64,000 nucleotides of DNA, taken from assembly GCA_027490225.1 (NCBI GenBank), contig JAIXYK010000032.1, positions 32,418 through 96,417 of the forward strand, read 5' to 3'. The notes below the pieces were generated by a model. It was not told where the DNA came from. It saw only the letters and a list, made by a program, of their open reading frames with translations, and did no database searches. Below are positions 34,925 through 42,555 of this stretch, piece by piece. The DNA comes from Bacteroidota bacterium (GTDB lineage Bacteria; Bacteroidota; Bacteroidia; M30B66). The position numbers were made by a program, and so were the translations under genes. Numbering within the stretch: the first letter of the stretch is position 1; every line of letters begins with the position of its first letter.

Positions 34925-37309
34925 TTAATGCTGGATAATTAGTTTTTGTGTTTCAGCAAATCCTTCCTTATTCAGAAGTTGAACAAAATAAATTCCATTG
35001 GACAAATCTGAAGTTTCAACATTTACAGAACCATTGCTTGAGTTAAATAATAAAATTAATTTCCCTGAAACATCTAATATTTTCCCTTTAAACTCGCCCG
35101 ATTTACAAGAAACTTGAAACACGCTATTACTCGGATTTGGAAAAATGTCAAAACCAGTTTCATTCATTTCTTCTAAACTCTCGGGTGTATTTTTTATACC
35201 ATACAATTGAACATCATCGATATAAATACCATCCAATTCTGAAAATTGATCTGAAACAAAATGATACCTTATTCTTATCTTTTCTCCAGCATATTGTTTC
35301 AAAGATATACTTTCGTTTCTCCATAACCGGGTTCTGTCTTCATAATTTGGCTCAGCATCAACTCCATCAAAATTCTCGTGGATTGAAGTGTATTCTGCGC
35401 ACAATTTCTCCCAGACTCCGTTTTCTCTTTTAATTTGAACGGATGCAATATCATAGTATTGCTCAGTGAACCACCAAACCCAGTAATCTAATCGAGCATC
35501 TATAAAATCAGTTAAATCAATCTCATTTTCAAATTCCATCGAACTTTCTTCATTAGAAAGGTAAGGCGAAAAAGGCGAATCTGTTAATGAAAATGGTGCA
35601 GAATGATATCTTTCTGATGTTGTGCTCCATAACTGAGTATTGGCTTCGCTCACCCAATTATTTCCATTTTCAATACTATCATTAATTAAGTAAATAGGTT
35701 GCCCAAAAATATGGGTAATTGTATCTCTCCAGAAATTCCCATTAACCTGCACCAACCAAACGTATTTAATGGTGTCTCCAGCTTGTAAACTTGGAGGTAA
35801 TGCATAAGAAACAGAATGGCCCGAAGTGTCAAATCTCGTAGGAGAATTTATAATTACAGGAGAAAAATCTGTAAATGAGATGTTGCTAATTCCAATTGCT
35901 TCAACTGTAAAGTTTCCTGATGTATTTCCAAGGGAAACAAATCTAAATGGCAAAGTCCCATTTGTTCCAGGTGGAATATAGTAAGGAGCGTCATCTATAA
36001 TTTCAGCATAACTAAGCGCAAGTTTTAATGTTTTTAGATTCATAAAAACTTCATTTGCACTGGCTGGAATTATTACTTCGGCTGGAGGCCAAAAACCATA
36101 AAACGGTTCTCCGAACTCAGGTGTAAAAGCAAAAACTGCAGGCTTTGTAGTTGTGTCTCCATACATCCAATCATCTGAACCGCCATTTCCGGTATAATAG
36201 ATTGTTTCGGGAACAGTGCCATAATAAAAGTGGTTTTCTGCGCACATTGCTTCTGAAAGATTTCGAAATGTAACAGAGTCTGGGCATTGAGCATTCTCTA
36301 AATTCCCATAAGGATATATTAAAACATTACTAAATGAGTGGTTATTAATAGCATAGATAAATTGGTGTTGTTCTGTAAATAATTTCATCAACCTTGTTTC
36401 TGGTTCAGAAAAAGGAGCAGTACCTCTATATGTTTGTTGATCTGCAAATGGAGAAGAACCAAAATCATCAAAACCCCAGAATTTTCCATAATTCCTATTC
36501 AAGTCAACTCCAAAAGAGCCGTCACCATTATTTCTTCTGTTTTTTCTCCACAAGCCACCTCCGCCTGGTTCTGATACTTCGTTATATACATAACCATCAG
36601 GATTTACACAGGGTACGATGTATAACTCTGTTTGATCTAAAATTTGTTTGATTTCTAAATCATTCTCGTAGTTTTCAAGAAGATACCAAGTAAAAAATAT
36701 CAATTGAGAAACAGATAATGGCTCACGAGAATGGTGCAAAGAACTCATCAAGACTTTTGGTTCATTCGGCTCATCTGAATTCGGATTATCAGAAACGCGA
36801 ACCCAATTTACAGTTCTATTTTCTAAGGTTAACAATGTATCTGAAATTGGGCTTAATTCCGAAATCAATTGCGGATATTGCTGATGCATTGCATTAAAAT
36901 TATCGAGAATTTCCTGATAACTGTAAAAACCTGATTGACTTCCTTCTTGAAAATTTACTGGTGTTTTTACCTTTTTTAATCCACATTCGTCTTGAATTGC
37001 CCTGCTTTTCTCAAAATCTCCTTTTTTATACAACGACCTGTAATAGCTGCTTACATCTTCAATTAAAATAGAAGTTTCAAAACCAGCATTTGCTATTTTA
37101 AGCAATTCATTTTCCGAAAAATCTGAGATAAAAGAATGACCTTGACGCAACATTCCATGGTCAGTTTCTATACCTAAAGCTGCAAGTTTTTGAATTGGTT
37201 CTTGTTTCAGAAATATCTCAGCTCTGTGATACTTTTCAACCTGAGCTGTTAAGATTGTTGCGCAACTTATTACAAAAAAAACTATTAAAACAGTCCGTTT
37301 CATTTCCAT
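34925..37309 (-). CDS. M14-family zinc carboxypeptidase with a C-terminal T9SS type-A sorting domain
   Basis: Signal peptide, the M14 Zn-binding motif HHSREP (HxxE) and a C-terminal ~80 aa ending ...GIYFVQLLNKEGFAETQKLIIQH, typical of Por_Secre_tail. Confidence 0.8.
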   Translation of the reverse strand: MEMKRTVLIVFFVISCATILTAQVEKYHRAEIFLKQEPIQKLAALGIETDHGMLRQGHSFISDFSENELLKIANAGFETSILIEDVSSYYRSLYKKGDFEKSRAIQDECGLKKVKTPVNFQEGSQSGFYSYQEILDNFNAMHQQYPQLISELSPISDTLLTLENRTVNWVRVSDNPNSDEPNEPKVLMSSLHHSREPLSVSQLIFFTWYLLENYENDLEIKQILDQTELYIVPCVNPDGYVYNEVSEPGGGGLWRKNRRNNGDGSFGVDLNRNYGKFWGFDDFGSSPFADQQTYRGTAPFSEPETRLMKLFTEQHQFIYAINNHSFSNVLIYPYGNLENAQCPDSVTFRNLSEAMCAENHFYYGTVPETIYYTGNGGSDDWMYGDTTTKPAVFAFTPEFGEPFYGFWPPAEVIIPASANEVFMNLKTLKLALSYAEIIDDAPYYIPPGTNGTLPFRFVSLGNTSGNFTVEAIGISNISFTDFSPVIINSPTRFDTSGHSVSYALPPSLQAGDTIKYVWLVQVNGNFWRDTITHIFGQPIYLINDSIENGNNWVSEANTQLWSTTSERYHSAPFSLTDSPFSPYLSNEESSMEFENEIDLTDFIDARLDYWVWWFTEQYYDIASVQIKRENGVWEKLCAEYTSIHENFDGVDAEPNYEDRTRLWRNESISLKQYAGEKIRIRYHFVSDQFSELDGIYIDDVQLYGIKNTPESLEEMNETGFDIFPNPSNSVFQVSCKSGEFKGKILDVSGKLILLFNSSNGSVNVETSDLSNGIYFVQLLNKEGFAETQKLIIQH

Positions 37310-37872
37310 TTAAATGTTTCGATTAAGTGATTGATGTCTTTTCTTACAAAATCTAAAGAAGGCGCCAGAGAATCAGAATTTGGTTCTGCATAAAAATAAA
37401 GTGAGCCTCTTAAAAAATAGCGAGTACTATCTGTAACATGAAATTGTAAGGAAGATGCTGCTTCCCCGCCAATCTCATAAAGCATCCCGTAAACTTTTTC
37501 CGATTTGTTTTCAATGGGATATTCTCCTATTCCACTTGCCTTTACAGAATGCTTGTATGCCATTTTGCGAGATTCTTCTAAATACTCGGCTGCATTATTA
37601 TTCAATTCCTTAAAGCTGATATGTATTTTAGCTTTAAGCTTACCAAAATCAATATTTATATAACATTTCTCATTGTTTCTTCCGGTAGGTAACTCAATTT
37701 TAGAATAAGTTGGAAATTCGAATGTGTAAGGACATTCAATGTTGAGTTGTTGGTAATTTTTTTGAGGGAAATCAATCCTATAGTACCCGCGTGGCTTGGG
37801 AATTTCTGTTGTTTCTTCTCCACAGGAAATGCATGAAACAAAAAATAAAATGTAAAAAAAAGACCTAATCAT
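37300..37872 (-). CDS. gldD: probable gliding-motility lipoprotein GldD
   Basis: 190-aa lipoprotein (lipobox FVSCISC) immediately downstream of ssb, preceded by mutY. This is the genomic context in which gldD sits in Flavobacterium johnsoniae, and the size matches GldD. No recognisable sequence motif was checked. Confidence 0.5.
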   Translation of the reverse strand: MIRSFFYILFFVSCISCGEETTEIPKPRGYYRIDFPQKNYQQLNIECPYTFEFPTYSKIELPTGRNNEKCYINIDFGKLKAKIHISFKELNNNAAEYLEESRKMAYKHSVKASGIGEYPIENKSEKVYGMLYEIGGEAASSLQFHVTDSTRYFLRGSLYFYAEPNSDSLAPSLDFVRKDINHLIETFKWK

Positions 37873-37928
37873 TTAAAATAAATATTAGGTCAATATTAAG
37901 CATACTTTTGGAAAGTGCTTATGAAATG

Positions 37929-39549: not shown

Positions 39550-39557
39550 TATCTTTG
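39550..39557 (+). promoter_or_regulatory. -7 element TATCTTTG upstream of the hup gene
   Basis: TATCTTTGCAGCC fits TAnnTTTG and shares the TTTGCAGCC extension with the queA and lepA promoters. Confidence 0.4.
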
Positions 39558-39630: not shown

Positions 39631-39918
39631 ATGACTAAAGCTGAAATTGTAGCAGAAATCGCGGAAAAGACCGGAATTGAAAAAATAACAGTTCAAGCTT
39701 CTGTAGAAGCGTTCATGAAATCAGTAAAAACAAATTTGTCTCAAGGTAAAAATGTTTACTTACGCGGATTTGGTAGTTTCATAGTTAAAAAACGTGCTAC
39801 TAAAAAAGGTCGTAACATTTCAAAAAATACTACCATCATCATTCCTGAGCATTTCATTCCATCTTTTAAGCCTGCAAAAACATTCAGCGAAAAAGTTAAA
39901 AAGTCTGTGAAGGCATAA
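39631..39918 (+). CDS. hup: HU-family DNA-binding protein
   Basis: MTKAEIVAEIAEKTGI...GFGSF...; ~95-aa HU/IHF fold. Confidence 0.9.
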   Translation: MTKAEIVAEIAEKTGIEKITVQASVEAFMKSVKTNLSQGKNVYLRGFGSFIVKKRATKKGRNISKNTTIIIPEHFIPSFKPAKTFSEKVKKSVKA

Positions 39919-39924
39919 TTTTAA

Positions 39925-40746
39925 ATGAATAAAAAGCAGCTTTTAGTAATAGCAGGATGTCTACTTATTGGAGTAATAATTTTTTTAGCTCCTAGAACAT
40001 CTCCTATTAAAAAAGAAGAAGCTGCTGATAAAAATACAGAATCGACTGATAAGGCCTTTGAAAGTCAGGTTTCTAGCGTAAAAAAAGAAATCACTCCCTC
40101 AGCCTTAGCAACGATAGAGTTCTTTGAAAGTAAACTAAAAGCATCTGTTGGTGCTGCAAAAGTTGTATGGCTTGATTCTCTCAGTAATAATTGGGACAAA
40201 CAAATGAGGCCAGGAATTGCAGCAGAATATGTTTTTCAAAAGGCAGCTATCATCAATACTGCTGAAAGCTGGAAAGAAGCAGGAGAAAGATTTCTTGGTC
40301 TTTCAAGATTTTTTCAAGGAGAAGACAACTCAACCATCGGCCTACGAGCTATTGAAGCACTAGAAAATGCTAAAAAGTTGAACGCTGATGATATCAATAT
40401 TAAAACTCAATTGGGAGTTGCATATGTTGAAACTAGTCAAGAACCAATGAAAGGAATAATGTTGTTGAGAGAGGCTGTTGCGCAAGATTCAACCAATATT
40501 GATGCACAATTAAACCTTGGATTCTTTTCTATGCAAAGCGCTCAATATGATAAAGCAGTAATTCGCTTTAAAAAGGTGATTAAATTAAAACCCGATTTAG
40601 TCGAAGCGAGATTGTATCTTTGCGATGCTTTGCTAGGAGAAGGAAAACAAGAGGAAGCAAAAACTGAATTGCTTAAAATAAAACAGTTAACCAAAGACAC
40701 AACGTTATTAAACGAAGCTAATAGTCGTTTAAAACAAATTAAATAG
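39925..40746 (+). CDS. TPR-repeat lipoprotein/periplasmic protein
   Basis: An N-terminal TM/signal segment followed by several 34-aa TPR-like repeats. Confidence 0.65.
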   Translation: MNKKQLLVIAGCLLIGVIIFLAPRTSPIKKEEAADKNTESTDKAFESQVSSVKKEITPSALATIEFFESKLKASVGAAKVVWLDSLSNNWDKQMRPGIAAEYVFQKAAIINTAESWKEAGERFLGLSRFFQGEDNSTIGLRAIEALENAKKLNADDINIKTQLGVAYVETSQEPMKGIMLLREAVAQDSTNIDAQLNLGFFSMQSAQYDKAVIRFKKVIKLKPDLVEARLYLCDALLGEGKQEEAKTELLKIKQLTKDTTLLNEANSRLKQIK

Positions 40747-40772
40747 AATTAATAATTTAAAAAATATCAATC

Positions 40773-40862
40773 ATGCCGAGCGGTAAAAAAAGAAAACGTC
40801 ATAAAATGGCAACCCACAAACGGAAAAAGCGCCTTCGCAAAAACCGTCATAAGAAGAAATAA
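40773..40862 (+). CDS. 29-aa ultra-basic peptide, candidate ribosomal protein bS22 homolog
   Basis: MPSGKKRKRHKMATHKRKKRLRKNRHKKK is 62% Lys/Arg/His and has its own terminator hairpin immediately downstream. Its composition and length resemble mycobacterial bS22 ([33 protein letters not shown]). It is below the ORF-track length cutoff. Confidence 0.5.
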   Translation: MPSGKKRKRHKMATHKRKKRLRKNRHKKK

Positions 40863-40869
40863 TTCATAT

Positions 40870-40918
40870 GGAATTACCACCTGTAAATAAATTTAACAGT
40901 TGGTAATTCCTTTATTTT
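40870..40918 (+). terminator. rho-independent terminator after the bS22-like ORF
   Basis: 10-bp perfect stem GGAATTACCA...TGGTAATTCC with a 21-nt loop, followed by TTTATTTT. Confidence 0.6.
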
Positions 40919-41004
40919 CACATTGCTGAAGTTTATAGCTGATGTGAGTTAACCTTTTAGTTTAACTCAGGTTCAGTTACTGCTTTGCGTTCAATTCATT
41001 AATT

Positions 41005-42555
41005 TTGAATAAAGAACTTGTTATTAATACCACTGGAAGTGAAGTGGTAATAGCACAGCTCGAAGACCGTAAACTTATAGAACTCAATCGCGAAAAAAGT
41101 AACAACAATTTCGCTGTTGGGGATATTTATTTGGGTAAGGTTAAAAAGGTGATGCCCGGACTTAATGCTGCTTTTGTAGATGTTGGGTACGAGAAAGATG
41201 CCTTTTTGCATTATCTAGACCTAGGTCCACAAGTTCAGTCTTTTAATAAATTTGCTAAATTAGGTTTGGCAGGTAAGCTTGCACCTGATGCTATTGGGGA
41301 TTTTAAAATGGAGCCGGACATTAAAAAGGACGGTAAGATTGGTGATGTGCTCCAAACAGGAAACCAAATTTTAGTTCAAATAGCAAAAGAACCTATTTCA
41401 ACTAAAGGACCTCGAATTAGCTCTGAAATTTCTTTAGCAGGCAGATATCTTGTACTTGTCCCTTTTTCTGACAAAATCTCGGTTTCTCAAAAAATCAAAG
41501 AAGCAGAGGAAAGAAATAGATTAAAAAGACTTATTCAAAGTATTAGACCAAAAGGGTTTGGGGTAATAATAAGAACGGTTGCTACAAATAAAAAAGTTGC
41601 AGAGCTTGATCAAGACCTTAACGAACTTATTGAGCGCTGGAATAGTCTCGTTGTTACTTTACCCACAGCTCAGCCAAAAGAAAAAGTATTGGGTGAAATT
41701 AAAAGAACTTCTGCACTATTAAGAGATGTTCTGAATGATACATTCAGCAGTATTACAGTTGATGACCAAACTATTTACAACGAGATTAAGAACTATATTC
41801 AACATATAGCTCCTGATAAAGAAAAAATTGTAAAACTTTACAAAGGAAAAGAAGGGATTTTTGAGGAATTTGGTATCGACAGGCAAATTAAAGCTGCTTT
41901 CGGACAAAATGTAAGCCTCAAAAGTGGTGCTTATTTAATCATACAGCATACAGAAGCTATGCACGTGATTGATGTAAATAGTGGTCATAGATCTCGTTCT
42001 GATAATGACCAGGAAACAAATGCCTTCGATTGTAATTTAGAAGCAGCGGGAGAAATTGCACGTCAATTAAGACTTCGTGATATGGGAGGAATAATTGTTG
42101 TCGACTTCATAGATATGCACTCTTCTGAAAATAGAAAGGTGCTTTTCGACAAGTTACGCGAAGCGATGGAAATGGACCGTGCCAAACACACCATTCTTCC
42201 ACCAAGTAAATTCGGATTGATACAAATCACTCGTCAACGTGTGAGGCCTGAATTAATCATTGAAACGCTCGAAAAATGCCCAACTTGCAATGGCACAGGT
42301 GAAATTCAGCCTTCTATTTTAATTTCTGATGAAATAGAAAACAACATCAGATACATTCTTAAAGAACAAAACGAGCGTAATATTAAATTGTGGGTGAATC
42401 CGTTTGTTGAAGCTTACCTTACTAAAGGATTTCCATCAATTCAAATGAAATGGTGGTTGAAATTTAAAGTTTGGGTACCTATAAAAGCCAATTCTTCTTA
42501 CCATTTTCTTGAATATCATTTCTTAAATAAGATAGACGAAGAGATTAAACTCTAA
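41005..42555 (+). CDS. rng: ribonuclease E/G family protein (RNase G-like)
   Basis: N-terminal S1 domain (GDIYLGKVKKVMPGLNAAFVDVG), catalytic DNase-I-like region (HVIDVNSG...) and Zn-link cysteines CPTCNGTG; ~516 aa. Confidence 0.85.
   Translation: MNKELVINTTGSEVVIAQLEDRKLIELNREKSNNNFAVGDIYLGKVKKVMPGLNAAFVDVGYEKDAFLHYLDLGPQVQSFNKFAKLGLAGKLAPDAIGDFKMEPDIKKDGKIGDVLQTGNQILVQIAKEPISTKGPRISSEISLAGRYLVLVPFSDKISVSQKIKEAEERNRLKRLIQSIRPKGFGVIIRTVATNKKVAELDQDLNELIERWNSLVVTLPTAQPKEKVLGEIKRTSALLRDVLNDTFSSITVDDQTIYNEIKNYIQHIAPDKEKIVKLYKGKEGIFEEFGIDRQIKAAFGQNVSLKSGAYLIIQHTEAMHVIDVNSGHRSRSDNDQETNAFDCNLEAAGEIARQLRLRDMGGIIVVDFIDMHSSENRKVLFDKLREAMEMDRAKHTILPPSKFGLIQITRQRVRPELIIETLEKCPTCNGTGEIQPSILISDEIENNIRYILKEQNERNIKLWVNPFVEAYLTKGFPSIQMKWWLKFKVWVPIKANSSYHFLEYHFLNKIDEEIKL

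Follow-up and report, generated by a model that had tools for sequence, protein, structure and literature searches.

Does the gap between a TPR protein gene and an RNase E/G-family gene in this Bacteroidota genome hold a protein-coding gene and, if it does, for which protein? In the stretch of DNA analysed here (64,000 nucleotides in all, referred to below as the window) this gap measures 258 bp, close to the 260 bp given in a preliminary description of the locus. Both the sequence and the list of open reading frames (ORFs) place in it a frame of 29 codons, running from ATG to TAA, for the peptide MPSGKKRKRHKMATHKRKKRLRKNRHKKK. The preliminary description had quoted this peptide exactly, and had counted 18 of its 29 residues as Lys, Arg or His. 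The correct count is 20 (11 Lys, 6 Arg and 3 His), with 17 residues being either Lys or Arg. It had also put the ORF forward as a candidate for the ribosomal protein bS22. The best explanation overall, which we hold with high confidence, is that the ORF is a Bacteroidia bacterium's gene for bS22, a protein of the small ribosomal subunit. The features of the locus are collected in Table 1.

Table 1. Features at and around the short ORF, in coordinates of the window.
Feature	Coordinates	Strand	Basis
HU gene	39631..39918	+	Pfam Bac_DNA_binding, E = 1.6e-26
TPR protein gene	39925..40746	+	Pfam TPR_11, TPR_19 and others
Putative A-rich translation-initiation region without Shine-Dalgarno (SD) sequence	40759..40772	+	Sequence
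bS22 coding sequence (29 codons + TAA), peptide MPSGKKRKRHKMATHKRKKRLRKNRHKKK	40773..40862	+	ORF list, PDB matches, conservation
Hairpin followed by TTTATTTTC, intrinsic-terminator-like or 3'-end-stabilising	40870..40919	+	Folding
RNase G (RNase E/G family) gene	41005..42555	+	Pfam RNase_E_G, E = 5.4e-99

The encoded peptide is orthologous to structurally verified bS22

A phmmer search with the peptide against all PDB chains returned three matches, every one of them ribosomal. The strongest was to chain 9i5v_10 of P. gingivalis (E = 1.6e-10, 27 of 29 residues identical), named AURKAIP1/COX24 domain-containing protein by its depositors, followed by chain 7jil_5 of F. johnsoniae (E = 5.5e-10, 26 of 29 identical), deposited as 30S ribosomal protein S22, and chain 8fmw_V of Borrelia burgdorferi (E = 1e-5), deposited as 30S ribosomal protein bS22. 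The same three chains were found by a family profile of 23 sequences (A1), with E-values of 1.6e-15 to 6e-13. The assignment to bS22 made in the preliminary description is therefore borne out by 90-93% identity to the F. johnsoniae and P. gingivalis cryo-EM chains of that name, and the window ORF is orthologous to structurally verified bS22. Scans of the peptide against NCBIfam and Pfam gave no match at E <= 10; such scans serve short, compositionally biased sequences poorly. The peptide and three 30-residue variants of it were absent from the protein collection. As only 31-residue variants are present there, this absence of the shorter sequences is uninformative.

Jha et al. (NAR 2020/21, PMC7797042) built a 30-residue peptide of pI 12.7 de novo into unassigned density of the 30S subunit, and matched it to the hypothetical gene Fjoh_1533, which they described as highly conserved among Bacteroidetes. 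Its product was named bS22 because it occupies the same position as M. smegmatis bS22. In F. johnsoniae (PDB 7JIL; PMC7797042) it lies in a pocket between h44 and h45 and contacts H70 of the 23S rRNA. In the P. gingivalis ribosome (2025; PDB 9I5V/9I5X; PMC12123416) bS22 was modelled at the same site, beside the aminoglycoside-binding site of h44; work cited in that paper reports that mycobacteria lacking bS22 become more susceptible to kanamycin. A 2026 paper on F. johnsoniae found bS22 in all 70S initiation complexes and found it absent from isolated 30S maps; its authors presume that the protein is lost from isolated 30S subunits during low-Mg2+ purification, and speculate on an interplay with IF3. 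In Borrelia (2023; PMC10618245) an unannotated bS22 homolog, bb0822, was detected via cryo-EM density, and further homologs were predicted, such short genes defeating annotation tools. Conventional bottom-up mass spectrometry of Borrelia ribosomes had detected every ribosomal protein except bS22. The preliminary description had portrayed the distribution of bS22 outside Actinobacteria as poorly known, a view overtaken by these reports: Bacteroidota bS22 has been in the literature since 2020, with further confirmation in 2025 and 2026, and its Borrelia counterpart since 2023. The window gene is an ortholog of this known protein.

By analogy with these ribosomes, the window gene would be expressed and its product would reside in the ribosome of this organism. 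The polycationic protein of 29 residues would be translated from an SD-less, A-rich leader. Going by the F. johnsoniae and P. gingivalis structures, it would then form a short bent helix in the rRNA pocket between h44 and h45 of the 16S rRNA, below the platform and close to the decoding centre. In that position its Lys, Arg and His side chains may neutralise rRNA phosphate charge, and its C-terminal lysines could reach H70 of the 23S rRNA and so provide an extra intersubunit contact.

The annotation status of the gene was checked indirectly. Four public Logan contigs (L121-L124; runs SRR16126835, SRR35819081, SRR16126896 and SRR16126855) match the window at 99.985-100% identity and include the exact bS22 coding sequence (L121:3849-3938). 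On these four contigs no gene was called between TPR and RNase G, in agreement with the earlier statement that the ORF is unannotated. Homologs of 31 residues in other genomes were called, mostly under the name 'hypothetical protein' and otherwise as 'AURKAIP1/COX24 domain-containing protein'. The value of the present identification is thus one of annotation, not of discovery: automated calling misses a conserved ribosomal protein gene in this organism's assemblies, and restoring bS22 gives a fuller ribosomal protein list for this organism.

Gene order and the hairpin downstream of bS22

For the comparison across genomes, codons 1-19 were back-translated into a degenerate DNA pattern, which was scanned against one genome per GTDB species and identified at least 120 loci. 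Of 119 loci among the matches listed, 103 had an RNase G gene downstream of bS22 in the same orientation, with a median of 151 nt between the two; in the window the two genes are 142 nt apart, again on one strand. HU was found upstream on the same strand in 102 of the loci listed, either adjacent to bS22 (55 loci) or separated from it by one gene (47 loci). A TPR homolog was detectable upstream in 43 of them, and MutY and SSB lay farther upstream on the opposite strand. The one-strand order HU-(TPR)-bS22-RNase G is a conserved trait of class Bacteroidia. The gaps in the window, 6 nt between HU and TPR and 26 nt between TPR and bS22, suggest a single transcript, and on this spacing alone HU, TPR and bS22 are probably co-transcribed.

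No RNase G followed bS22 in 11 loci with enough downstream sequence, among the matches listed. By record title these came from Ignavibacteria, Rhodothermales/Rubricoccaceae, Omnitrophota, Neomarinimicrobiota, WOR-3, Treponema and one Bacteroidota MAG. Among the matches listed, the linkage of bS22 to RNase G is therefore a feature of class Bacteroidia. The linkage of HU to bS22 extends to Ignavibacteria, Neomarinimicrobiota and WOR-3.

Three further observations concern the neighbouring genes. The start of RNase G is ambiguous over 41005-41046: the longest ORF begins at TTG 41005, which the motif TAATTTTG overlaps, and encodes 516 aa, and on contigs sharing the window's sequence the automated gene calls differ (516 aa on two, 503 aa on two). 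Matches to TAnnTTTG, the -7 motif of Bacteroidota, were located at 39550 (upstream of HU), 40615 and 41000. The motif was rejected as promoter evidence, and these occurrences carry no weight, since the window shows no excess of it (88 copies where 103 would be expected). Just upstream of SSB (about 36000-37900; L121:1-948), a gene for a GldD-like gliding-motility lipoprotein and one for a peptidase M14 with a Por secretion tail point to a gliding, T9SS-bearing Bacteroidota organism.

The preliminary description had also reported a 10-bp stem and a T-run after the ORF. The hairpin is real: it begins eight bases past the bS22 stop codon, and is built from an outer stem of 10 bp (40870-40879 paired to 40901-40910), followed inwards by one mismatch and four further pairs, with TTTATTTTC after the hairpin. 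It folds at -18.4 kcal/mol (z = -5.0), and none of 200 shuffles was as stable. A simple consensus terminator scanner, run over 40300-41300, flagged no terminator, probably because the internal mismatch pushes the loop past the scanner's 8-nt limit. Among the matches listed, structure directly after the bS22 stop codon was common (z < -2 in 77 of 119 loci), as it was in the first half of the spacer between bS22 and RNase G (z < -2 in 54 of 83 loci). The sequence of the downstream hairpin is itself unconserved, with a downstream entropy of about 1.9 bits among the matches listed. Structure that is common while its sequence is unconserved fits a terminator or a 3'-end-stabilising hairpin, and the hairpin would accordingly terminate or stabilise the transcript before RNase G.

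The whole intergenic region folds at -42.4 kcal/mol (z = -6.3). Past the terminator-like hairpin, and before RNase G begins, comes a second, extended stem-loop (40925-40988). This stem-loop could be an element of the RNase G 5'-UTR. We rejected it as part of the bS22 feature, as the second half of the spacer had z < -2 in only 18 of 83 loci among the matches listed. An Rfam scan of the whole window at gathering thresholds matched no family, so the hairpins of the window correspond to no known RNA families; there was no rRNA in the window.

A short ORF, a hairpin with a T-run and a same-strand gene 142 nt beyond it make up an attenuator-like layout, and both the downstream RNase G and the structured stretch after the stop codon recur among the matches listed. 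Could the ORF then be chiefly a leader peptide, with the hairpin and T-run attenuating RNase G and the peptide itself functionless? We consider this very improbable. Unlike leader peptides, this peptide is conserved nearly residue for residue across phyla and from 32 to 70% GC. In the bS22 family 15 of 29 positions are invariant and the mean column identity is 85% across phyla, which is not what would be expected of a dispensable peptide. Near-identical peptides are, moreover, physically present in ribosomes, and lineages outside class Bacteroidia (Ignavibacteria, Rhodothermales, Treponema and others) retain the ORF with no RNase G gene behind it. A gene for bS22 remains the preferred reading, with a secondary regulatory role of its ORF, via read-through, being possible.

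In E. coli, 16S rRNA is matured at its 5' end by RNase G. In class Bacteroidia bS22 almost always immediately precedes RNase G, in most cases with an intervening hairpin, and this arrangement may reflect a functional coupling, a suggestion that we regard as unlikely. The literature searched held no mention of bS22 and RNase G together, and their linkage is a minor lead. If the suggestion were true, regulated read-through of the hairpin could tie RNase G synthesis to ribosomal protein supply; alternatively, bS22 could load late in 30S maturation, after 16S processing.

Codon-level conservation of the reading frame

An ORF of 28-31 codons, with essentially the same stop position, was present in 120 of 120 loci among the matches listed. 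Codons 20-28 provide an unbiased test of its conservation, as they lie outside the search pattern. Among the matches listed, they read R-L-R-K-N-R-H-K-K in nearly all genomes, with a third-position entropy of 0.87-1.85 bits and a second-position entropy of 0-0.17 bits in 7 of the 9 codons. Pairwise codon differences over the same nine codons and the same matches comprised 31,342 synonymous and 7,173 non-synonymous changes. The identical peptide is found in at least 12 other species, with 12-18 silent nucleotide changes per 90 nt. A Rhodothermales homolog at 70% GC keeps 27 of 29 residues, with changes at 18 of 29 third positions and at 5 of 58 first and second positions. The preliminary description had suggested looking for conservation of the frame with codon-aware variation, and these counts supply it. 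The bS22 ORF is a real protein-coding gene under strong purifying selection.

Conservation ends at the ORF boundaries: the flanks have an entropy of about 1.6-2.0 bits, except at the A-rich positions -12 to -14 and at -1. In the window, the leader carries A at -3, and its positions -9 to -14 are all A. Among the matches listed, A was found at -12 to -14 in 77-98 of 119 loci, and was the most frequent base at -3 (60 of 119). T occupied position -1 in 87 of 119 loci among the matches listed. Initiation in Bacteroidia has been described as SD-less and dependent on upstream adenines (F. johnsoniae paper, 2026). The A-rich leader of bS22 fits this mode of start selection, and would function in it here.

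Since AAA, AAG and AGA give Lys and Arg by composition, and A-rich runs in a window of 34% GC translate as Lys-rich strings, a frame this short, and uncalled by automated pipelines on this organism's contigs, might be taken for a chance opening in an A-rich spacer; the conservation data refute this and make its probability negligible, as the degenerate pattern of the first 19 codons had one match in the window and none in 100 window shuffles, and the same frame, stop and codon-aware variation recur in at least 120 genomes, one of them at 70% GC. Just as close to nil is the probability that the real gene is an antisense ORF of 37 codons (40767..40880, minus strand, GTG start), with the plus-strand ORF as its mirror. 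This ORF is present in the window, and its frame is stop-free across the coding sequence in 90 of 120 genomes among the matches listed, as is to be expected because the complements of Lys and Arg codons are never stop codons. However, it is broken in the other 30, and not one of the 120 loci has a break in the sense frame; the variation falls at third positions of the sense frame, and it is the sense-strand peptide that matches solved ribosomal chains. The conservation data thus effectively refute the antisense ORF as well, and leave the plus-strand ORF as the gene.

Bacteroidota-type bS22 was also seen in genomes labelled Omnitrophota, Neomarinimicrobiota, Treponema, WOR-3, Ignavibacteria and Rhodothermales (loci L014, L028, L093, L107, L004 and L083, among others). 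Its distribution would then be broader than the 'Mycobacteria and Bacteroidia' of the 2026 paper, on the strength of MAG labels, which can be wrong. A 'Streptomyces griseus' MAG (L078, 36% GC) and a 'Lachnospiraceae bacterium' (L061, 34% GC) both carry Bacteroidia-type bS22 with RNase G downstream and TPR or HU/MutY upstream; the likeliest explanation is that these contigs belong to Bacteroidota and were mis-binned or mislabelled.

Comparison with known bS22 proteins and their relatives

In size and extreme basicity the window peptide resembles actinobacterial bS22 (M. smegmatis, 5O61/5XYU; C. acnes, 8CRX), mS38/AURKAIP1/Cox24 (PF08213) and eL41. In the comparisons made here it showed no significant sequence similarity to them, and there were no reciprocal PDB matches at E <= 10. 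At that threshold the A1 profile retrieved solely Bacteroidota and Borrelia chains. The M. smegmatis bS22 sequence, which we checked against 5O61, 5XYU and other entries and found to match their chain exactly, retrieved actinobacterial bS22 and, weakly, mS38 (E = 0.1-6), with no Bacteroidota-type chain at E <= 10. A Smith-Waterman alignment of the window peptide with M. smegmatis bS22 scored 48, compared to 38.1 +/- 5.4 for composition-matched shuffles (z = 1.85), and 108 of 2000 shuffles scored as high.

The Pfam family COX24_C (PF08213, formerly DUF1713) gave no match to the window peptide at E <= 10, a result to which HMMER bias filters may contribute, and it matched 6 of the 23 relatives, with a best E-value of 0.17. 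Given the lack of cross-matches, the z-score of 1.85 and the weak PF08213 matches, membership of the actinobacterial/mitochondrial family is unproven at the sequence level. The preliminary description had called the peptide mS38-like and had proposed an HMM of the bS22/mS38 family as a check; neither the likeness in sequence nor a match to PF08213 was recovered. The name shared with the actinobacterial/mitochondrial family rests on the published equivalence of pocket and bent helix, the same h44/h45 pocket and bent helix being reported for the F. johnsoniae, P. gingivalis and Borrelia homologs (PMC7797042, PMC12123416, PMC10618245). NCBI, for its part, names some Bacteroidota homologs 'AURKAIP1/COX24 domain-containing protein'.

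Borrelia burgdorferi bS22 (bb0822, 8FMW) is a clear sequence homolog from another phylum, with about 71% identity and E-values of 1e-5 for the single peptide and 6e-13 for the A1 profile. It differs from the window gene in its GUG start (PMC10618245), where the latter has ATG, and it was likewise missing from its genome annotation (PMC10618245). The closest likeness is to bS22 of F. johnsoniae and P. gingivalis, which share with the window peptide a length of 29-30 residues, 26-27 identical residues out of 29 and the invariant motifs (MPxGKKRK...THKRKK...NRHKK). The substitutions that separate them are conservative: the window peptide has M12 for V and L21/K23 for A/A relative to F. johnsoniae, and S3 for N and R22 for K relative to P. 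gingivalis. The likeness extends to the surroundings of the gene, as the bS22 neighbourhood of the window is also that of the Flavobacteriales and Bacteroidales genomes sampled.
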